DNA of 64,000 bases from Dehalococcoidia bacterium (lineage in GTDB: Bacteria; Chloroflexota; Dehalococcoidia; SHYB01), in contig CAXXHW010000006.1 of the NCBI GenBank assembly GCA_963666265.2, positions 822,325-886,324 on the forward strand, in the 5' to 3' direction. Numbering within the stretch: position 1 is the first letter of the stretch; every line of letters begins with the position of its first letter. Below, one piece after another: positions 3,757 to 52,092 of this stretch. The notes under the pieces were generated by a model. That model did not search any database and was not told where the DNA came from. It worked only from the letters and a program-made list of their open reading frames with translations. The position numbers and the translations under genes are program-made.

Positions 3757-5784
3757 ATGCAGATCTACAACACGGAGTCGATAAGGAATCTAGCCCTTCT
3801 CTCCCACAGTGGCGCCGGCAAGACCGCGCTTTCGGAGGCGATGCTCTTCTCTTCCGGAGCAATCAACCGTCTGGGGCAGATAACCGAAGGCAACACCGCA
3901 TCGGACCATGAGCCCGAGGAGATCGAGCGCCAGGGCAGTATCCAAACCACTATCGTTCCTTGCGAATGGCAAGGCAAGAAGATCAATGTGCTGGACACAC
4001 CAGGCTACGCAGATTTTGCTGGGGAGGTTGTCTCAGCTCTCGAGGCCGTGGACTGCGGGGTAGTGTTGGTCAGCGCGGTCGATGGCGTAGAGGTCGGGAC
4101 CGAGGCAACCTGGCAGCGGGCCGAGGGGCTGGGGCTGCCTAGAATCGTCGTGATCAACAAGCTGGACAGGGAGAATGCGGACTTTTTGCAGTCTCTCGAG
4201 ACCATCCAGGGGAAATTCGGCCGCAGGTGCATCCCGGTCCAACTGCCCAAGGGCACCGGCGCCTTCGAGGGAGTAGTAGACCTGTTGGACCCCTCCGCCT
4301 CCGACCAACACCCCCGGTTCGCCGAGTTCCACGAAGCGCTGGTAGAGGCGGCCGCCGAGGCGGAAGACTCCCTGACGGAGAAATACCTTGAGGAAGGGGA
4401 CCTCTCTCAAGAAGAGCTGGTACAGGGGCTGAAGATCGGCATCGCGGCCGGCTCCCTTTTTCCCGTTCTGGCGACCTCGGCAACCCAAGAGGTGGGCATC
4501 ACTCAGCTCCTGGACTTCATCGCGGAGTACGCGCCGTCACCGTTGGACAGGCCCGCAACGGAGGCCAAGAACGCGTCTGGCGACTCCGTGCAGATAACAC
4601 CGGGGGATGATGCACCTTTGGCGGTAAAGGTCTTCAAGACGACCGCCGACCCTTACGTCGGCAAGCTGTCCTTCTTACGAGTGGTGGGTGCTCCTCTTAA
4701 AAGCGACACCCAGGTTTGGAACGTCAACAAGGGGCAGACCGAACGAGTAGCCCAGCTCTTTGTGCCTCGCGGCAAGGTCCAGGATGGGGTGCCCTCCCTG
4801 GCATCGGGGGATATCGGCGCCGTAGCCAAACTTCAACACACAGGCACTGGCGACACCTTGGTCCAGAAGGACAAGACGGTGACGTTCCCCAAGTTCGAGT
4901 TCCCCAGCCCTGCACACAGCATCGCCATCTCCCCCAAGACCAAGACGGACATGGACAAGATGGGCACTTCCCTGACCAGACTAATAGAGGAGGACCCAAG
5001 CCTCCAGGTCACCAGGGACCAGGCTATCAGCGAAACCGTGCTCTCGGGCCTTGGCGAAGCCCATGTCGATGTAGCTTGCAAGAAAATGAAGAGGAAATTC
5101 CAGGTAGATGTGCTGACCGCCACACCGTCAATCCCCTACCGGGAAACGATCAAGACAAAGATCAGGACCGAGTACAAGCACAAGAAGCAATCGGGCGGGC
5201 ACGGTCAATACGCCCATGTCTACCTCGAGCTCGAGCCCACGCCCCGCGGGAGCGGCGTCGAGTTCGGTAACAAGGTGGTCGGCGGGTCCGTCCCCAAGGA
5301 GTACATCCCTGCGGTGGAGAAGGGGGTGATGGAGGCAGCCCATCAGGGAGTGATCTCAGGCAACCCGGTCGTGGATGTCAAAGTCACCCTGGTCGATGGG
5401 AGCTCCCACTCCGTGGATTCTTCCAACATGGCGTTCCAGATAGCTGGAAGTCAAGCGCTAAAGAAGGGGCTGCAAGACGGCGCTTCGGTTCTCCTGGAGC
5501 CCATCATGCGGGTGGGGGTGACCGTGCCGGACACCTATACCGGCGACATCATGGGAGACCTGAATGGGAAGCGAGGACGTGTATCGGGCACCACACCCCA
5601 CAACGGGGCCACTCTCGTGGAGGCTCATGTCCCGTTATCGGAGATGCAGCGCTACGCAACAGACCTGCGCTCCATGACCCAGGGGCGCGGCAGCTACACC
5701 ATGGACTTCAGCCGCTACGAAGAGGTACCGGCTAACCTCGCGCAGAAGGTGGCGGAAGAGACAAAGCAACACGCGTCATCATGA
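3757..5784 (+). CDS. fusA: Elongation factor G paralogue (EF-G2 type)
   Basis: HSGAGKT, DTPGYADF, NKLD, KQSGGHGQY, LRSMTQGRG; RQGSI in place of RGITI and Tyr in place of the switch-II His; not in a str operon. Confidence 0.92.
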   Translation: MQIYNTESIRNLALLSHSGAGKTALSEAMLFSSGAINRLGQITEGNTASDHEPEEIERQGSIQTTIVPCEWQGKKINVLDTPGYADFAGEVVSALEAVDCGVVLVSAVDGVEVGTEATWQRAEGLGLPRIVVINKLDRENADFLQSLETIQGKFGRRCIPVQLPKGTGAFEGVVDLLDPSASDQHPRFAEFHEALVEAAAEAEDSLTEKYLEEGDLSQEELVQGLKIGIAAGSLFPVLATSATQEVGITQLLDFIAEYAPSPLDRPATEAKNASGDSVQITPGDDAPLAVKVFKTTADPYVGKLSFLRVVGAPLKSDTQVWNVNKGQTERVAQLFVPRGKVQDGVPSLASGDIGAVAKLQHTGTGDTLVQKDKTVTFPKFEFPSPAHSIAISPKTKTDMDKMGTSLTRLIEEDPSLQVTRDQAISETVLSGLGEAHVDVACKKMKRKFQVDVLTATPSIPYRETIKTKIRTEYKHKKQSGGHGQYAHVYLELEPTPRGSGVEFGNKVVGGSVPKEYIPAVEKGVMEAAHQGVISGNPVVDVKVTLVDGSSHSVDSSNMAFQIAGSQALKKGLQDGASVLLEPIMRVGVTVPDTYTGDIMGDLNGKRGRVSGTTPHNGATLVEAHVPLSEMQRYATDLRSMTQGRGSYTMDFSRYEEVPANLAQKVAEETKQHASS

Positions 5785-5864
5785 CGGGTGATTCGTGTGC
5801 CGCATCAGAAGGGCGCCTACAAATTCAGTAACGAGCGCTTCGCAGGCGCCGGGGTACCGTCCCT

Positions 5865-5888
5865 GAGGGACACCGCGCGGTGTCCCTC
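5865..5888. repeat. Perfect 24-bp palindrome between convergent genes (REP-like or terminator)
   Basis: GAGGGACACCGCGCGGTGTCCCTC is its own reverse complement. Confidence 0.7.
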
Positions 5889-5909
5889 GCAGCTGGCCTG
5901 CGTTGCCGC

Positions 5910-6350
5910 CTACGTAGCGGGGGCCTGCCAGATAGTATGGTACTGGTCGCCGGTGATAACGGCGGCCATTTCCTCTTTCTCAAGTTTGCGCAGCTCATCC
6001 AGGGCGTCGGCGCAAGACTTCACGCTACCCTTGTCGCCTGTGGCGGCGCATCGCTCAACGAGCATGTCCCAAATGCCCATACGCACCAGGCTGTCTACAT
6101 ACTTGGGCCATGGGAGGATCGCAAGCTTCTCGGGCTGAGGGAAACGCGGCCGTAGCTTCTTGAGGCTCCTTACCCGTTCCTCAATGGAGTTGACCATGGG
6201 CAGCAGCCGCACGACGGGAGGGTCCTCCACGTCCGTTCGGAGGTCTACTACCAGGGTCTTCCTCAACAGCGGAAAGTAGAAGCAGACCACTTCGGCCCGC
6301 TGGATGTTCCTGCTGATCTCGTCCATATCCATGCGGTAATCGCTGTTCAT
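5910..6350 (-). CDS. Hypothetical protein, co-oriented downstream of etfA
   Basis: 146-aa ORF with GAGGAG RBS and protein-like composition. Confidence 0.75.
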   Translation of the reverse strand: MNSDYRMDMDEISRNIQRAEVVCFYFPLLRKTLVVDLRTDVEDPPVVRLLPMVNSIEERVRSLKKLRPRFPQPEKLAILPWPKYVDSLVRMGIWDMLVERCAATGDKGSVKSCADALDELRKLEKEEMAAVITGDQYHTIWQAPAT

Positions 6351-6395
6351 CTACCAGTCTCCTCTTCCAAACCCTCAGCGGATTGGCCGCGTACG

Positions 6396-7379
6396 CTACG
6401 CTCCCCGTAACTCTCGGCACATCTCGATGAACGCTGGCAGGACTTCTTGCCAGTCCCCTTCCACGCCGTACCGGGCCTCCTTGAACATGGTGCAGTCCTT
6501 GTCCTTATTGATGGCGACGATGGTCTTCGATCCGGAGCAGCCCGCCATATGCTGGCTGGCTCCGGAGATAGCCACCGATATGTACAGGTTCGGCGTGACA
6601 GTCTTGCCTGTAAGTCCCACCTGGAAGGAGTGCGGCAGCCATCCAGCGTCGCAGACGGCGCGGCTGGCACCCACGGCGCCGCCCAGGATCTTGGCCAGGT
6701 CCTCAAGCTGCTCGAAGGGCTCCGGCCCTCCAAGTCCTCGGCCTCCTGAGACCACCACAGGAGCATCCTCAAGCCGCATGCCGGTGGACTCCTCCTTCCG
6801 CACCTCAAGGACCTTGACCTTCAGGCTGCCTGGATCGATGGTTACGTCCAGTGGGGTGACCGATCCCGCCCGCGAGTCATCTCGTTCCAAGGGCTCAAAG
6901 GCTTTGGCCCTGACCGTCGCCACGCGCACATCGGTATTGGTCTCTGAAACGGCCAGAGCGTTTCCGCCGTACACCGGCTTGGTGGCGATGAGCCCTTTGC
7001 TGGGGTCCTGCTCGAGCTCGACGCAGTCCATCACCACCCCGGCCTTTAGCCGGAAGGCTAGCTTGGGCGCCAGGTCCTTCGTGGCGTCGGTATGGCCCAT
7101 CAGCACAACCTGCGGAGTGTCAGCCTCAATCGCGTGCTGCAGAAGCTGAAGATAAGCGTCCGGCTGGTAACCGGCCATCTCCCCATCCTCATAGGTGTAG
7201 ACCTTGTCGGCCCCAAAGGCTACCAGCTCTTTGGCCACCGCCTCTGTGCCCTTCCCAATAACAACGGCTGAGACGCCGCCGCCCAACCGGGTCCCGACGC
7301 CCAGGGACTCTTTGGCCGCAGCCGTTAGTTTACCGTTGTTCACTTCGGCAAAGACAAGGACTCCTTGAGAATCTGCCAT
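6396..7379 (-). CDS. etfA: Electron transfer flavoprotein alpha subunit
   Basis: VVSGGRG, GASRA, QVGLTGKTV, ISGASQH, AINKD motifs. Confidence 0.95.
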   Translation of the reverse strand: MADSQGVLVFAEVNNGKLTAAAKESLGVGTRLGGGVSAVVIGKGTEAVAKELVAFGADKVYTYEDGEMAGYQPDAYLQLLQHAIEADTPQVVLMGHTDATKDLAPKLAFRLKAGVVMDCVELEQDPSKGLIATKPVYGGNALAVSETNTDVRVATVRAKAFEPLERDDSRAGSVTPLDVTIDPGSLKVKVLEVRKEESTGMRLEDAPVVVSGGRGLGGPEPFEQLEDLAKILGGAVGASRAVCDAGWLPHSFQVGLTGKTVTPNLYISVAISGASQHMAGCSGSKTIVAINKDKDCTMFKEARYGVEGDWQEVLPAFIEMCRELRGA

Positions 7380-8804: not shown

Positions 8805-9758
8805 CTATCCTGCAAACGCCGGCATCACCTTGGCGGCGAACCACTCCATGTGGCGCATCAGATCGCTGGGCTTTTCCCAATTGAACCGGATGTACAGGTG
8901 ACTGAATCCGGCGTCTCGCTGCCGTTCAATAGCCTCGATCACGGCCTCCGCCTCGTACGGCAACCCCTCCGAGAGGCTTCGCACGTTAGCATGGTGCGTC
9001 CGGTCCGTCGTGGTCGTAAATGGGGTGGACACCTCCCGGTCCCCAACCTCCAAGCTGTGAGAGAACCTGAACCGGTCAGGGTCTCGTCCCAGGGCCTCCA
9101 GCTGCTCCTTAATCCACGCGACCTTCCCCGGCAGGTCTTCCTGGTTACTGGCCATGGGCACCACCCAGCCGTCGCCGAGCTCGACAGCCCTACGCAAGGC
9201 CCGCGGGCTTTCGCCACCGATCCAGATGGGAAGGTGCGGCTTTTGCAGGCACTTTGGCAGGAAGCCCACGTTGGAGAAGGTCGCGTATTTCCCTCGGAAG
9301 GCGGGCTCCTCTTCAGTCCACAGGACCTTCATCGCCCTGACATACTCATCGGTCAAGGCCCCTCGCTCCTTGAAGGGAATGCCGAGAATGCTGAACTCCT
9401 CGGGAAGCCACCCGGTACCAACCCCGCATATTATCCGACCGCCGGAGACCACATCCAACGTCGCCAGCATCTTGGCCGTCTGAACCGGTGGCCTGTACGG
9501 GACTACCAGTGTGTAGAAGATGAGCTTGATGCGCCTGGTGACGGTGGCGAGGTAGGAGGCCAGCACAAAGTTGTCGTACCAGAGAGCCCCCGGTGAAGGT
9601 CCGCCGGGCCGCCCCGGCATGACGATATGCTCTGTTAAATTTATCCCGAAAAAGCCAAGCTCGTCCGCTAAGCGGGCAGCCTCCCCCATCGCCTCAACGC
9701 CACCCCATCGGGAATGGGGTGAGAGTCTGAACAAGGTAAAGTCCAGTTGCTTATCCAT
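8805..9758 (-). CDS. Luciferase-like (LLM) flavin/F420-dependent oxidoreductase
   Basis: EHIV, AKMLATLDVVSGGR, GVGTGW..EEF, PIWIGG; start placed at MDKQLDF. Confidence 0.9.
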   Translation of the reverse strand: MDKQLDFTLFRLSPHSRWGGVEAMGEAARLADELGFFGINLTEHIVMPGRPGGPSPGALWYDNFVLASYLATVTRRIKLIFYTLVVPYRPPVQTAKMLATLDVVSGGRIICGVGTGWLPEEFSILGIPFKERGALTDEYVRAMKVLWTEEEPAFRGKYATFSNVGFLPKCLQKPHLPIWIGGESPRALRRAVELGDGWVVPMASNQEDLPGKVAWIKEQLEALGRDPDRFRFSHSLEVGDREVSTPFTTTTDRTHHANVRSLSEGLPYEAEAVIEAIERQRDAGFSHLYIRFNWEKPSDLMRHMEWFAAKVMPAFAG

Positions 9759-9913
9759 GAACGTGGCCTCGTTCTCGGCTGCTTCCGCCCATGCCGCAGC
9801 GCCGCCATTTACACAAGTCCTACGGGCGTTTAGGAAGTATGGTAGCATGTCAGCCTGAAAAGGTGGGTACTGACAACATCCCATTGCCCTCACCGCCGAA
9901 AAGTCAGGAGCAG

Positions 9914-10426
9914 ATGGTCGATACATGGGTCGCGGTCGTCGCCGCATCAGCCGTCGGAGGAGCCGGGATCGCCGGCGCTATCCTCATGGCGATTCTTCTG
10001 AACGGCTGGGCAAGAGACCGTGAGGAGGCCCTCTGGTACCGGCAGCGAGAGGCGGAGCGCGAGGAGCGGATACAGACCGAGCGGATGAGGGAGATCTCCC
10101 GTATGGAGGAGTTCCTGGACGCCGCCTCGAGGCATCTCGAGCTTGTTCACCTCGCAGAGTTTCTGCCCAATGGGAGCCAGCAGATCGACCACGTAGACGT
10201 GTACAGGCAACTGCTTCAAAGCCGTACCCGGGCCCAGACCTCGGCGCTCGCCCTGAGCATATCGCAGCAAACGCTCGACAAGTTCACCGAGCTGTTTGAC
10301 AACGCGAGAGCGCTTGCCCAAACCGCTCAAAACGGCAATACATCCGAGCCCTGGATAGTCCAGGCCGCCCTGGCGATTATCGGCGACATCCGACGCGACC
10401 TAATGGTTTTGAAAGGCACAGGCTAG
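9914..10426 (+). CDS. Hypothetical protein with N-terminal transmembrane helix and coiled segment
   Basis: AGGAG RBS before ATG 9914; hydrophobic N-terminus followed by a charged helical region. Confidence 0.65.
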   Translation: MVDTWVAVVAASAVGGAGIAGAILMAILLNGWARDREEALWYRQREAEREERIQTERMREISRMEEFLDAASRHLELVHLAEFLPNGSQQIDHVDVYRQLLQSRTRAQTSALALSISQQTLDKFTELFDNARALAQTAQNGNTSEPWIVQAALAIIGDIRRDLMVLKGTG

Positions 10427-10560
10427 CGTTTTGCGGCGGCCTGGCCAATCCGGAGTCCGGCCGCCAGCCCGTTTTCTCTCCAATCCCCTCTTGCCATCGC
10501 GTCCGGCGCGGCCCCCTCTCTGACTTCAGCGTTGTGGGCAATCCAATACTTACCTCTGTC

Positions 10561-11115
10561 TCATTCGTTGTCTCCCCACAGGGCTTTCCGTACACCCGGT
10601 GCCGCATGGCGGGCGCGAGCATGGATTTCCTCCATGGTTAGCGTGCTCAGCGGGTGCTCGATGACCACCGGTTCGAGGCGTTCCATTCCCAACGCGACAA
10701 CCTGTGACCGTGCCTCGTCTAAAAATGCCTCGGTGACAATGGCCGCCGTGGGCAGCCCCATTTCCTCCAGTACCGTTGCATCGTGCATACAGCACGAGGT
10801 GCACGAGCCTCAGTCTCCCACGGCTGTCAGGACGGCGTCATTTTCCTGTGCGATCTGCCGGATCAAGTCTGGGGCCGCGTTTTTCGAAAACGTCTCCTTC
10901 TTGTAATAGCGGACCTCGCCGATAGCGCCGCCACTTTCGAGCTCCGCAACCGTCGCTTGGAGGAGCTTGCGAGCATTCCACTTGGTGTTGTCCAGGACTC
11001 CGAGCCGGATGGCGCTCCCAGCCTCGAGCCGGGGGGCTATCGAGCGTGGCTCAGCCTCCACCACCCCTCTGGGGTCGTAGACGGTCCGCTCCCTTCGCGT
11101 TGCCCTGGTGCTCAT
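10561..11115 (-). CDS. UGSC-motif selenoprotein (in-frame UGA = Sec102)
   Basis: ORFs 10810-11166 and 10561-10788 share a frame and join through TGA at 10812-10810: VLTAVGD-U-GSCTSCCMHD; SECIS-like hairpin follows; selD present in the window. Confidence 0.88.
10777..10803 (-). promoter_or_regulatory. Bacterial SECIS-like hairpin of the UGSC gene
   Basis: TGCA-CC-TCGTGC-[TGTAT]-GCACGA-TGCA; apical loop starts 18 nt after the UGA with G at loop position 2. Confidence 0.7.
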
Positions 11116-11153
11116 CTCTTCCTCCGTATTGTTCGAGCTTCTTGGCCGTCCGC

Positions 11154-12251
11154 TCAAAGAGCGCACGTTCCATCCACGCAGACCGGTCCTGATGCCGGCG
11201 GCCTCCCGTCAATGGCCCGAATGACAGGACTTGTCATGTGCCCCCAGCCGGGGATGAACGCTGAAAAGCGGCCCGCCTCCCCGCCAGCTACGAATAAGTG
11301 GATCTCGTTAGGACTGGGAACGATGGGGGTTCGGGACTCGGGTGCTCGTCCATACCATCGGGGCAGGTTGCGGTTGTAGACGGTGCCATAGCGATGGTTA
11401 AAGCTGACATCCGCGAAGGTATTCTTGGTGTTCATCCACAGATAGCTGCGTACATCGCTACGGGTCCAGCCCTTGGATGCGATGGTGGCGCCGTGCTCGG
11501 GCCCGATCACCACGACGCATGCCCCGCTGCTCACGGCGTTGTTGTGGGCAATGGTGCTCATGGCCGAGACGACGCTGTCCAGGACTCCTTCGGGGTCGTT
11601 GGCGATGTGGTTGGTCACGCTGTGAGGCGCTTCGGCCGCAATGGCGAAGACGGTGCTGTCCTCGGCCTCATACCCCTGTTCCACGTGGTAGGGGGCCCAG
11701 GGGCTGGCCTCCTCGTTCTCAGCGATGCAGTAGGTGTACTTGCTGGGATGGCCCAGGGTGCTCTTGTCGAGCTCGCCAGGACGGCCACCACCGACGTTCA
11801 GCAAAATCAGGCGCACCGCCCGGCCGATGGTCGCATTCGCCCTATTTCCGGAACCGAAAACGTTGGCGCCGGCGTTCATGCCAATCTCGTTCCGCACCGG
11901 GCCGTTGACCACAATCAGCGGACTTGCCATGTGGGTGGTGGCCTGGACGCCGTTCAGGTTAAAGGCCGGGCCGGAGAGGGCCAGCATCGCCGCTCGCACC
12001 ACCGGGGCGTACTCCGGCTTGCACCCGGCCATCACGATATTAACCGCGAGGACTTCCCGCGTGAGGTTTCCCCAGCGCGGCGGTACACGGCACTCGACCA
12101 GGTCGGGCTCGCCCCCCAGCGCCGCCAATACCGCCGAGGGCTTCTCGGGCGTGGGCGGAACGACGGGGAGCCCGTCGGAAAAGCCCTGCTCGTAGTACCA
12201 CTCGACCAGGTCTACGTCCTCAGCGACAGGCTGGGTGATTTTGGCTACCAT
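11154..12251 (-). CDS. Conserved uncharacterised partner of the UGSC protein (DGLPVVPPT / MAGCxPEY family)
   Basis: GGAGGAGG RBS before ATG 12251; SDGLPVVPPT, VMAGCKPEY, RANATIGRA, ENEEASPW motifs; C-terminal CVDGTC. Confidence 0.85.
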   Translation of the reverse strand: MVAKITQPVAEDVDLVEWYYEQGFSDGLPVVPPTPEKPSAVLAALGGEPDLVECRVPPRWGNLTREVLAVNIVMAGCKPEYAPVVRAAMLALSGPAFNLNGVQATTHMASPLIVVNGPVRNEIGMNAGANVFGSGNRANATIGRAVRLILLNVGGGRPGELDKSTLGHPSKYTYCIAENEEASPWAPYHVEQGYEAEDSTVFAIAAEAPHSVTNHIANDPEGVLDSVVSAMSTIAHNNAVSSGACVVVIGPEHGATIASKGWTRSDVRSYLWMNTKNTFADVSFNHRYGTVYNRNLPRWYGRAPESRTPIVPSPNEIHLFVAGGEAGRFSAFIPGWGHMTSPVIRAIDGRPPASGPVCVDGTCAL

Positions 12252-12300: not shown

Positions 12301-13095
12301 TTAGCCCCTCGGCCGATTGAGAAAGCCCTGTAAAAGGGAGACGGGCTCGCTCGTCCGATAAGCCTCCGCAAAGGACTCTATCCCTTTGTCGATGGCCTGC
12401 TCCAAAGGGAGGCGCTCCCACTCACGAATAAGCTCCTTCTGAAGCCGTATAGCCCTGGGCCCCGCTCTCAGGACCGCTGTCACCCATTCTTCTACGCTGG
12501 CGTCCAACTCTTGCCGGTCGACGACACGCTCGACCAGACCGGACCTCAGGGCCTCCCCCGCATCGATGACCCTGCCGGTGTACACCATCTCCCTGGCCTT
12601 GCCCCATCCGACCAGCCGAGGCAACAGCGCGGCCTCGACGACGGAGGGGAGCCCGACGGCTACCTCGGGCATGCCGAAGCGGGAATCCTCCGTCGCGACC
12701 CTCATGTCGCAGGCGGCGGCAACCTCCAGCCCTGCTCCCAAGCAATGCCCGCGGATTCGGGCGATGACCGGCACCGGAAGGGAACGCAGAGCCCCGCAGA
12801 CTCTATGAACGCCGGTGATGAACCTGACGGCTTCCTCGGGTGAGGCGATGCCGGCCAGCTCATTGATGTCGGCCCCCCCACAGAAGGCCCGGTCACCAGC
12901 GCCGGTCAGCACTACGACTCTTAGCCGTTCGTCGCTCCTCATGCCTTCGATGGTCCGCCAGAGCTGTTCGCTGAGGGGTGACCCCAGCACGTTGAGCTTG
13001 GCCTCGTGGTCTATGGTAATCCGAGCGACACGGCCAGCTTCGCCGCGGTCGTCAAGGTCAAGGTGGACCGTTGGACTGGTCGACACGGTATTCAC
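12301..13095 (-). CDS. Enoyl-CoA hydratase/isomerase (crotonase) family protein
   Basis: AFCGGADI, CLGAGLE, FGMPEVAVG. Confidence 0.92.
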   Translation of the reverse strand: MNTVSTSPTVHLDLDDRGEAGRVARITIDHEAKLNVLGSPLSEQLWRTIEGMRSDERLRVVVLTGAGDRAFCGGADINELAGIASPEEAVRFITGVHRVCGALRSLPVPVIARIRGHCLGAGLEVAAACDMRVATEDSRFGMPEVAVGLPSVVEAALLPRLVGWGKAREMVYTGRVIDAGEALRSGLVERVVDRQELDASVEEWVTAVLRAGPRAIRLQKELIREWERLPLEQAIDKGIESFAEAYRTSEPVSLLQGFLNRPRG

Positions 13096-13150: not shown

Positions 13151-13293
13151 GCCAACAGGTGGTCAAACCGGTGTGCTCGTTGAGTACATATAAGACAGCG
13201 CGGGGGCGGAAGCAGGTCATGCGCTTGTCGCCGCAGTAGCTTCCTGCCTCCGCAGGCTTTCCAGACATCCAGATAACCGAAAGACCCTGGGGC
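13151..13293 (+). ncRNA. Candidate rod-shaped structured ncRNA (6S-like)
   Basis: Nested pairings GCC/GGC, CAG/CTG, GGTC/GACC, CGGT/ACCG, a central bubble, then 13200-13213 paired with 13239-13253; TATAAA at 13140-13145 upstream; strand not proven. Confidence 0.4.
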
Positions 13294-51039: not shown

Positions 51040-52092
51040 CTAGTTCACAACGTGTACATTTCCCCTACCGTCCGCCACAATCTCGCCGACTACGGCGGCA
51101 TGCCCCACCCCTTGCCGGCCAAGGGCCTCCATCAGCCGTCCGGCTTGGGCCTGCGGAGTGGAAAGGAGCAGTCCCCCGGAAGTCTGTGGGTCATAAAGGA
51201 TACGATGTGCCAGAGGGTGAATGCCCTTGTCCCAGGTCACGCCGTGGTCATGGTAGGTACGGTTGCGTTGCATCCCACTGGGGAATATCTCGCGTTCGGT
51301 GGCCAGGTCCCAGGCGCCGGCCATCTGCGGGACCTGGGCGTAGTAGATACGCGCGCTGGCGCCGCTGGCCTCAAGCATGGTCCTCAAATGGCCGAGAAAC
51401 GCGTACCCGGTGATGTCAGTGCAGGCGTTGATGTCGACCTCCCGGCCGGCCTGGGAGGCTGCCGCGTTGAGGGTCGCCATGTGTTGGATAGCCGCCTGGA
51501 GCACGGCGTCCTCGGCCTCACCACGCTTGCCGGCGGTGGTGATGATGCCAGAACCCAGAGGCTTGGTCAAAATCAGGGCGTCGCCGGGTTGAGCCCCTGC
51601 GTTGCTCCACTGTTCACCTGGCTTTACCACTCCGGTGATCGCCATGCCGTACTTGGGCTCGTGATCGTCGATGGTGTGGCCGCCTACGATCGGCATCCCG
51701 GCCTCCATGGCCTTGTCCGCCCCGCCCTTCAGAATCTCGTTGAGAGCGCTCCTGGGCTGATCGCTCGGAAAAGCCACGATGTTCAGACCGATGAGGGGCT
51801 TGGCTCCCATGGCATACACGTCACTGAGGGCGTTGGCCGCGGAGACGCTGCCAAACTGATACGGGTCGTCCACTACCGGAGGAAAGAAGTCCACCGTTTG
51901 CACCAGAGCGAGATCGTCGCTCATCCGGTACACCGCGGCGTCGTCACCCGTGCTGATCCCCACCAAAACGTTGGGGTCAACGATGGTCGGCAAATGCCTC
52001 CGGAGGTCGTTCAGGTCACCCGGACCGTACTTGGCAGCTCAGCCTCCGGATTTTGCCAAGGTGGTCAGCTTTACCTGTTCACCGGCTGGCAT
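51040..52092 (-). CDS. selD: Selenide, water dikinase (selenophosphate synthetase), Sec at codon 18
   Basis: GAGGAAGG RBS + ATG 52092: MPAGEQVKLTTLAKSGG-U-AAKYGPGDL in frame with the 51993 ORF; DDAAVY, TVDFF, ANALSDVYAMG, GGHT, TDITG, DPQTSGGLL. Confidence 0.95.

Follow-up and report, generated by a model that had tools for sequence, protein, structure and literature searches.

Two open reading frames (ORFs) on the minus strand of a 64,000-nucleotide (nt) stretch of Dehalococcoidia DNA, here called the window (contig CAXXHW010000006.1 of assembly GCA_963666265.2, positions 822,325 to 886,324), raise a double question: are the fragments at 10810..11166 and 10561..10788, into which the ORF track splits the sequence, parts of a single gene in which an internal TGA encodes selenocysteine (Sec), and what would the protein do? 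The first part can be answered with near certainty. This is a true selenoprotein gene of the UGSC family, and its UGA codon at residue 102 is read as Sec by means of a downstream hairpin and the SelA/SelB/SelC/SelD machinery. For the second part, the best explanation of the material as a whole, and a rather probable one, is that UGSC and the 365-residue product of the adjacent gene (the partner) constitute a two-subunit selenoenzyme driven by thioredoxin.

The UGSC gene (10561..11115, minus strand, terminal TGA at 10561–10563 included) starts with an ATG at 11115, which follows, at a distance of 5 nt, a Shine-Dalgarno-like GGAGG read from the sequence (11121..11125, minus). Its frame is 184 residues long if the internal TGA (10810..10812, minus) is read through as U102, inside the motif G-D-U-G-S-C, so that ...VLTAVGD-TGA-GSCTSCCMHDATVLEEMGLPTAAI... 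becomes ...AVLTAVGD-U-GSCTSCCMHDATVLEEMGLPTAAIV... in the protein. A 184-residue frame interrupted by a TGA had been described in an earlier note on this DNA and is borne out, as is the assignment to UGSC made there: the read-through protein matches PF24696 ('UGSC family') with 180.4 bits against a cut-off of 25 (residues 12–179 on profile positions 2–170 of 172) and NF041046 ('UGSC family (seleno)protein') with 148.6 bits against a cut-off of 125. With both curated cut-offs exceeded, the gene is a member of the catalogued UGSC family. It is 'hidden', as the same note put it, from plain ORF callers only, for NCBI already names some of the full-length relatives (~180–210 residues) 'UGSC family (seleno)protein'. 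The gene therefore adds a member to a known curated family, and what the locus offers beyond that is the partner gene and the lineage-wide expansion.

The source genome (3.18 Mb in 6 contigs, 91% complete) contains 11 UGSC genes that are mutually 20–50% identical, each with a single TGA inside its profile match. In the alignment of the 11 paralogues, the TGA always occupies the same column of the motif G-x-U-G-[S/A]-C, the positions before and after it are conserved, and G100, U102, G103 and C105 are invariant. The UxxCxxC motif proposed earlier thus holds for U102 and C105, whereas the third cysteine varies. All 11 genes have a plausible start, nine after a GGAGG-like sequence and two after a weaker G-rich one. 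A homologue search with the read-through protein yields 116 relatives, many of which are fragments of 101–105 residues ending at the UGA position. The U102 column is Cys in 24 full-length homologues, where GDCGSC is invariant, but the alignment used prints U as C, so the count of Cys codons in DNA is the safer evidence. Among the UGSC genes that adjoin a partner gene in other taxa (n = 62), 54 are full-length with TGA at the U site, four are full-length with Cys and four are partial. Cys homologues aligned at the UGA, which the earlier note had proposed to look for, are therefore present in four of 62 loci, those of Parapusillimonas granuli, Candidimonas nitroreducens, Natrialba asiatica and Sphingomonas sp. 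Finally, two further studies each supply a contig that spans 10400–11751 (X3, 4651 nt; X6, 10096 nt), with two and four differences and an unchanged TGA, which excludes a sequencing error.

The in-frame TGA is followed by a hairpin resembling a selenocysteine insertion sequence (SECIS) (10777..10803, minus; upper stem 10781–10797). It consists of a lower stem of 4 base pairs (bp; UGCA/UGCA), a CC bulge, an upper stem of 6 bp (UCGUGC/GCACGA) and the loop UGUAU; the lower stem, the upper stem and the loop lie 6, 12 and 18 nt 3' of the UGA, respectively. This is the hairpin with a G-containing loop that the earlier note had drawn, and it is now joined by covariation over 56 other sequences. Bacterial SECIS elements are hairpins within a few nt of the UGA that carry a conserved G in the apical loop, about 16–37 nt downstream. 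The geometry and the conserved loop G found here agree with this description, and binding of SelB is predicted.

No gaps are needed to align the 57 nt that surround the TGA. Because the hairpin columns are also coding, protein constraints contribute to the following pairing figures. In the 11 paralogues, 84.8% of the upper-stem cells are paired, compared to 67.8% in shuffled alignments (0 of 500 reach the observed value) and 17–52% when the opposing columns are slid, and three of the six upper-stem pairs show compensatory changes. In the window sequence plus 56 UGSC genes of other taxa, the upper stem is paired in 93.5% of cells, compared to 82.8% in shuffles (again 0 of 500) and 12–56% in slid controls, with compensatory changes in four of the six pairs, in 24 cells. 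In this larger set, pair 27–33 occurs 38 times as CG and 17 times as GC, and the loop residues G29 and U30 each show a conservation of 90% or more. The paired changes on both arms of the stem sit at third codon positions. Pairing above that of shuffles, together with compensatory changes, makes the hairpin more than a chance fold. The lower 4-bp stem is complete in the window and partly conserved elsewhere, in 11–45 of 56 sequences per pair. An Rfam search of the hairpin found no matching family.

The genome also encodes the machinery needed to insert Sec. Profile searches detect selA (547.9 bits), selB (316.1 bits, plus a C-terminal winged-helix piece) and selD (350.6 bits, located in the window), and there is a tRNA-Sec (selC) with the anticodon TCA, so that the three genes whose presence the earlier note had made a check, selA, selB and selC, are accompanied by selD. 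The selD gene (~51100–52092, minus) is itself a selenoprotein gene: its Sec codon, 52039–52041, is at the usual N-terminal position, and its N-terminus reads M-P-A-G-E-Q-V-K-L-T-T-L-A-K-S-G-G-U-A-A-K-Y-G. Selenoprotein-rich Dehalococcoidia, with 46–49 selenoproteins, are on record (PMC13326102).

Directly upstream of the UGSC gene lies the conserved partner gene, which was absent from the earlier note. It occupies 11154..12251 on the minus strand, encodes 365 residues and ends 38 nt before the UGSC start; its ATG at 12251 is preceded by GGAGGAGGG. The partner belongs to no Pfam or NCBIfam family, with no match even at E values up to 5–10 and across nine paralogues, and a sequence-profile search of PDB chains finds no relative (best E 0.38). 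Its own family is very large: 7999 of 8000 scored candidates have an E value of <=0.001, and a library clustered at 50% identity holds 5041 partner representatives at the same threshold. Six residues (D26, G76, G143, R144, E178 and G323) are invariant in 68 partner sequences, and two cysteines are nearly so, Cys77 (66/68) and Cys175 (63/68). The conserved motifs are D26-G-L-P..P-P, N71-x-V-M-A-G-C77, G143-R144, C175..E178 and G323-G324. Orthologues of the window's partner, with records from Dehalococcoidia, Nitrospinota, Vicinamibacterales, Rhodospirillaceae, Stellaceae, Parapusillimonas and Candidimonas, are 63–83% identical to it, whereas its own paralogues are at most ~43% identical. Orthologues across taxa being closer than paralogues within the genome, the partner subfamilies are old, and each is conserved in its own right.

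The source genome has 12 partner copies (by tblastn), mutually 35–59% identical. An adjacent partner on the same strand accompanies 10 of the 11 UGSC genes; it is located downstream of UGSC in seven cases and upstream, as in the window, in three. Over the 10 pairs, the identity matrix of UGSC is correlated with that of the partner (Mantel r 0.70, reached by 2 of 5000 permutations), which shows that the pairs were duplicated as units and does not by itself demonstrate co-evolution. When 80 partner loci from named genomes were examined with 2.5 kb on each side, UGSC adjoined the partner on the same strand in 62, across many phyla. In the loci with a partner at least 63% identical to that of the window (n = 17), UGSC is found just downstream in 16, and the remaining locus stops 369 nt past the partner. 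Of 41 related genomes, 40 have either both families or neither, and a genome rich in one is rich in the other (UGSC/partner copies 11/12 here; 18/19, 14/14 and 19/19 in others). All 14 other searched genomes of the same taxonomic family have 6–19 UGSC matches, and every listed one contains the TGA.

The expansion is family-wide: these genomes (G001–G014), 1.6–3.8 Mb in size, have 5–25 partner matches alongside their UGSC matches. Most other families of the class have neither UGSC nor the partner, and one distant family (G038) has 12 and 14 copies.

In some other organisms the two proteins are joined in one chain. A Pfam scan of 44 homologues longer than ~410 residues, chosen by length from 150 listed partner relatives, identifies 11 complete UGSC–partner fusions. 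Another 11 begin with the post-UGA part of UGSC and continue into the partner (one of them ends in FeThRed_B); since they start at the post-UGA half, these are Sec forms cut by the gene caller. Four consist of the partner followed by UGSC up to the UGA, four carry only other redox modules (Pyr_redox_2 of the thioredoxin-reductase type, FeThRed_B and, twice, AhpC-TSA/Redoxin), and 14 have no Pfam family.

A fusion of this kind may have been seen before. The selenoproteome of the Global Ocean Sampling (GOS) survey (Zhang and Gladyshev, PMC2398784) has 255 Sec and 21 Cys forms of UGSC, and its passages on the family describe a 'UGSC/Unknown_1 fusion' in aquatic organisms, in which UGSC is fused to a conserved domain of unknown function. 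The fusions found here are probably the same, with the partner as a candidate identity for Unknown_1; the same passages report no general adjacency, co-expansion or GrdB kinship. The gene of the window resembles the GOS family in its size, its U-G-S-C motif, the SECIS hairpin after the UGA and the large excess of Sec over Cys forms. The gene itself is no different from that family, and what is unusual here is the presence of 11 copies in one genome and of 6–19 in each of the 14 others searched from its taxonomic family. UGSC is called 'a selenoprotein of unknown function' in PMC1976440 and is listed without a function in PMC9312934 and PMC13188914; the passages on UGSC in these three papers and in PMC2398784 contain no functional assignment, no partner and no mention of GrdB kinship. 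With its 255 Sec genes in GOS, UGSC is among the most abundant selenoprotein families of the ocean metagenomes that were analysed, and in the literature passages searched no function has been assigned to it since ~2005–2007. The partner, the Sec module shared with GrdB and PrdB (see below) and the natural Cys forms in cultured bacteria and a haloarchaeon make the question of its function testable.

What kind of chemistry could the pair perform? The earlier note regarded the protein as a minimal selenol catalytic subunit of the GrdB/PrdB type, i.e. akin to selenoprotein B of the glycine, sarcosine and betaine reductases (GrdB/GrdF/GrdH) and to PrdB of D-proline reductase. Direct matches to these families are weak: the NCBIfam GrdB profile (TIGR01917) gives E 0.0027 and 16.7 bits against a cut-off of 602.2 (residues 56–163 on profile 292–402 of 431), the PrdB profile (TIGR04483) gives E 0.0054 and 16.2 bits against a cut-off of 300 (residues 73–127 on profile 119–173 of 238), and PF07355 (GRDB) does not match the UGSC protein. 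Profile–profile comparison is more telling. It was carried out with local hhalign on sets read through the TGA, namely 35 UGSC sequences, 11 full-length GrdB-like genes of class relatives, and 10 PrdB-like genes (nine from class relatives and the only one in this genome). UGSC aligns to GrdB with a probability of 94.8% (E 4.8e-8) over 86 columns, UGSC 90–181 on GrdB 336–423 of 433, with the Sec column on the Sec column and the alignment extending through to the HP(L)G motif. UGSC and the PrdB-like set align with a probability of 69% (E 4.4e-5), again Sec on Sec, and the control comparison of PrdB-like with GrdB gives 99.8% and E 8.2e-30. A relaxed alignment covers UGSC 3–184 and GrdB 183–426 with a large GrdB insertion, and confidence in the added part is low.

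The features shared with GrdB and PrdB are a β-strand D-A-V-x-L-T, Sec at the start of a helix, an E-x-x-G-[IL]-P strand and then HP(L)G. The 11 GrdB-like genes read ...ILTST-U-GTxTR[C/S]GA...E..G[IL]P...HP[LV]G and the PrdB-like genes have U-x-x-C at the Sec site, so the U-G-T-C that the earlier note gave for both families fits in part. These comparisons support a remote homology between the C-terminal half of UGSC and the stretch at the C-terminal end of GrdB and PrdB that carries the Sec. UGSC was rejected as a member of the GrdB/PrdB family itself. It has no GRDB domain, as only 101 residues precede the Sec, its scores are far below the cut-offs, and profile searches of the source genome (91% complete, as given above) find neither GrdA (PF04723) nor GrdE/PrdA (PF09338), both of which were found in all five GrdB-bearing class relatives that served as a positive control. 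UGSC also differs in length, 184 residues compared to ~430 in GrdB and ~240–320 in PrdB and PrdB-like proteins, and in its partner, which comes from an unrelated family. Of the earlier claim, what stands is the remote kinship of the Sec module; a catalytic role of the selenol is predicted.

The PrdB-like gene of this genome (320 codons, L030:1273-2235 (+), contig C4 ~386.7–387.7 kb; ...FLTAT-U-PLC...) deserves a remark of its own. It is the genome's only PF07355 match, and with no GrdA or GrdE/PrdA found, it may be a second orphan Sec-module protein.

In glycine and proline reductases, activity depends on a thiol/selenol redox cycle for which thioredoxin or a dithiol supplies the electrons, and we infer a cycle of the same kind for UGSC, which is proposed to be a small α/β-type protein. 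The two-subunit enzyme would then work as follows. UGSC and the partner would be made together and form one enzyme, as the single fused chain in other organisms suggests. The partner, with its conserved Cys77 and Cys175, would bind the substrate, and the selenol of U102 would make a reductive attack on it. Cys105 would resolve the adduct to give a selenenyl-sulfide, which a thioredoxin-type system would re-reduce. The 10 diverged pairs would be isoenzymes for different substrates. We give this sequence of steps (binding by the partner, attack by U102, resolution by Cys105, recycling by thioredoxin) about an even chance of being correct.

A broader reading is more tentative, and we put it forward as possible though less than likely. 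UGSC and the partner might represent an undescribed class of thioredoxin-driven selenoenzymes, an aerobic-world counterpart of the Stickland reductases that combines the GrdB/PrdB Sec module with a new substrate-binding subunit and that, in this Dehalococcoidia lineage, has radiated into 10 or more isoenzymes reductively cleaving or reducing carboxylate or coenzyme A (CoA)-ester intermediates in the breakdown of organic matter. Stickland reductases are used by fermenters, whereas Parapusillimonas, Candidimonas, Sphingomonas and Natrialba, the genera of the Cys forms, live aerobically. The 6–19 copies per genome suggest that this lineage, whose selenoproteome is large, devotes a sizeable share of it to catabolic diversity and not to defence against oxidants. 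Quite improbable is a further extension, in which the partner would cleave itself between the invariant Gly76 and the nearly invariant Cys77 and so gain a pyruvoyl group in the manner of GrdE/PrdA; its basis is the conservation of the two residues. Without similarity between the partner and GrdE, the analogy to a pyruvoyl subunit is functional speculation.

Several observations weigh against the two-subunit selenoenzyme or against parts of it. The evidence for UGA read-through, for binding and for catalysis is indirect and derived from sequence. The fold energy of the hairpin as a single sequence is unexceptional (z = -1.25; among 200 shuffles, 18 have a fold as good or better). The homology to GrdB spans ~90 residues at 22% identity and comes from small alignments (35 and 11 sequences); moreover, in glycine reductase it is the selenol of GrdA that attacks the substrate, and the role of the Sec of GrdB itself is unsettled. 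The partner has a similarity probability of <1% to the profiles of the N-terminal part of GrdB, of PrdB-like proteins and of GrdE. Pairing is not absolute, as the source genome has one UGSC gene without an adjacent partner and two solitary partner copies, and 18 of the 80 partner loci have no UGSC within 2.5 kb, although some of these end at contig edges and six are from Poribacteria. The gene neighbourhoods are heterogeneous, and there is no thioredoxin reductase gene beside the window's pair. The hhalign probabilities also led, at this sensitivity, to the rejection of the partner as a split-off N-terminal domain of GrdB or as a relative of GrdE/PrdA; between the partner and the UGSC profile the probability is likewise <1%.

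The rival that survives best, although we consider it unlikely, makes UGSC a dedicated redox carrier, similar to thioredoxin or GrdA, that passes electrons from an enzyme of the thioredoxin reductase type to the partner, where Cys77 and Cys175 do the chemistry. Redox carriers usually have a UxxC where a helix begins, and a thioredoxin-like fold was guessed for UGSC in a passage of PMC2398784. UGSC also shares a UxxC motif and a presumed selenenyl-sulfide cycle with UxxC/CxxU selenoproteins of the thioredoxin fold (Trx-, Prx-, Grx- and SelW-like), but it has no match to any thioredoxin-type family in Pfam or NCBIfam; a sequence-profile search against all PDB chains likewise returns nothing for it (best E 0.23). 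The two nearly invariant cysteines of the partner and its fusion elsewhere to AhpC-TSA/Redoxin, FeThRed_B or Pyr_redox_2, instead of or besides UGSC, are what a carrier would lead one to expect. However, UGSC has no detectable relatives other than GrdB and PrdB, selenoproteins of the B type and not carriers, and UGSC and the partner duplicate and diverge pair by pair, which a shared carrier would not need to do; the low identity among the UGSC paralogues suggests specific fits.

Much less probable is that the pair handles selenium, sulfur or a metal, in trafficking or detoxification, rather than an organic substrate. Conserved Cys/Sec clusters in both proteins and occasional neighbouring genes for SelB, DsbA-like proteins and glutathione peroxidase could be read in this way, but the neighbours include no recurrent family of metal or sulfur carriers, and 10 diverged pairs in a 3.2-Mb genome, located by different catabolic genes, fit substrate diversification better. 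The last alternative, that the TGA is a true stop, whether the locus is a pseudogene, consists of two small genes or contains a sequencing error, is scarcely credible and was rejected: ordinary gene callers do end there, public collections do contain many of the short fragments and the fold energy of the hairpin alone is not significant, but the TGA keeps its column in 11/11 paralogues and 54/62 genes elsewhere with strong protein conservation beyond it, Cys replaces it in four genomes, the hairpin covaries, the full Sec machinery is present and independent contigs retain the codon.

The surroundings of the pair bear on the substrates that the proposed selenoenzyme might use. Directly upstream of the partner is a gene for an enoyl-CoA hydratase/isomerase (12301..13095, minus; PF00378 at 2.3e-43), which is possibly the first gene of a putative unit; a promoter-like site (10/12 match) is found at 13166–13138. 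Downstream, and outside the conserved core, are a gene for a luciferase-like monooxygenase (8805..9947, minus; PF00296 at 7.6e-50) and the genes for the α and β subunits of electron transfer flavoprotein (ETF). A luciferase-like monooxygenase also stands beside another UGSC pair of this genome (L027) and in three loci of other taxa. No conserved third gene accompanies the pair, and the neighbours differ even among the closest orthologues.

Beside the other pairs of this genome are CoA-transferase family III (two loci), Amidohydro_2, Amidohydro_3, a luciferase-like monooxygenase, SBP_bac_5 (the solute-binding protein of an ABC transporter), a FAD-linked oxidase, and SDR together with thiolase-like genes. 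In other taxa, where the 150 nearest ORFs were considered, the commonest neighbour is CoA-transferase III (7/62 loci), followed by NHL-repeat proteins (five), luciferase-like monooxygenase (three) and DUF6282 (three). Flavoproteins of the thioredoxin-reductase type are found beside the pair in two loci, plus L065; MmgE/PrpD, TctC, LarA-like and Amidohydro_2 proteins occur in two loci each, and genes for TRAP transporters, acyl-CoA dehydrogenase and ETF also occur near pairs. Taken loosely, these neighbourhoods may point to carboxylic acids or CoA esters as substrates.

Some copies in the source genome depart from the common arrangement. The partner copy next to the UGSC gene at C4:820524 is split between frames near L027 5150–5190 (L027 ~4693–5963 (+), C4 ~819.5–820.4 kb) and is thus a pseudogene with a frameshift, unless the assembly is wrong at this point. 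The UGSC gene that has no adjacent partner (L022 ~5968–6525 (+), C6 ~621.2–621.8 kb) scores highest of the 11 in Pfam. It is preceded by putative-cyclase (PF04199) genes, with a gene of the thioredoxin-reductase type 4.7 kb upstream. The lone partner copies without a nearby UGSC are at C6:358686–359717 and C2:80597–81568. One of these adjoins isocitrate-lyase-like genes and the other adjoins homocitrate-synthase-like and NAD-formate-dehydrogenase-like genes, as named from their translations. Two loci carry two pairs each (L023 5980–10177 and L024 5974–9496), one tandem and the other convergent. The closest paralogues reside in different loci (C6_454 with C4_914; C4_917 with C6_451), and the double loci are therefore not recent tandem duplications.

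Two kinds of gene recur next to the pair in other taxa. A DUF6282 gene is directly beside it in three distant taxa (L097 1530–2408, L129 1546–2397 and L100 3512–4345); in two of the three it lies between UGSC and the partner, and it may be an optional third component. A gene for an NHL-repeat protein of 297–328 residues follows the pair in five Dehalococcoidia/Chloroflexota loci (L089, L105, L107, L121 and L122, at ~4160–5781).

Contigs from public sequencing runs show one more property of the window. Two stretches, 10781–10812 (the UGA and the hairpin) and 11696–11763 (a block in the partner gene), attract many such contigs at 90–95% identity. These come from other copies or organisms and include contigs of the RNA library X20. 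In X20, a single exact piece of 206 nt lies inside the enoyl-CoA hydratase gene, and the other pieces are short and from relatives. Conservation of the two stretches at the nucleotide level is far above that of the remainder of both genes.

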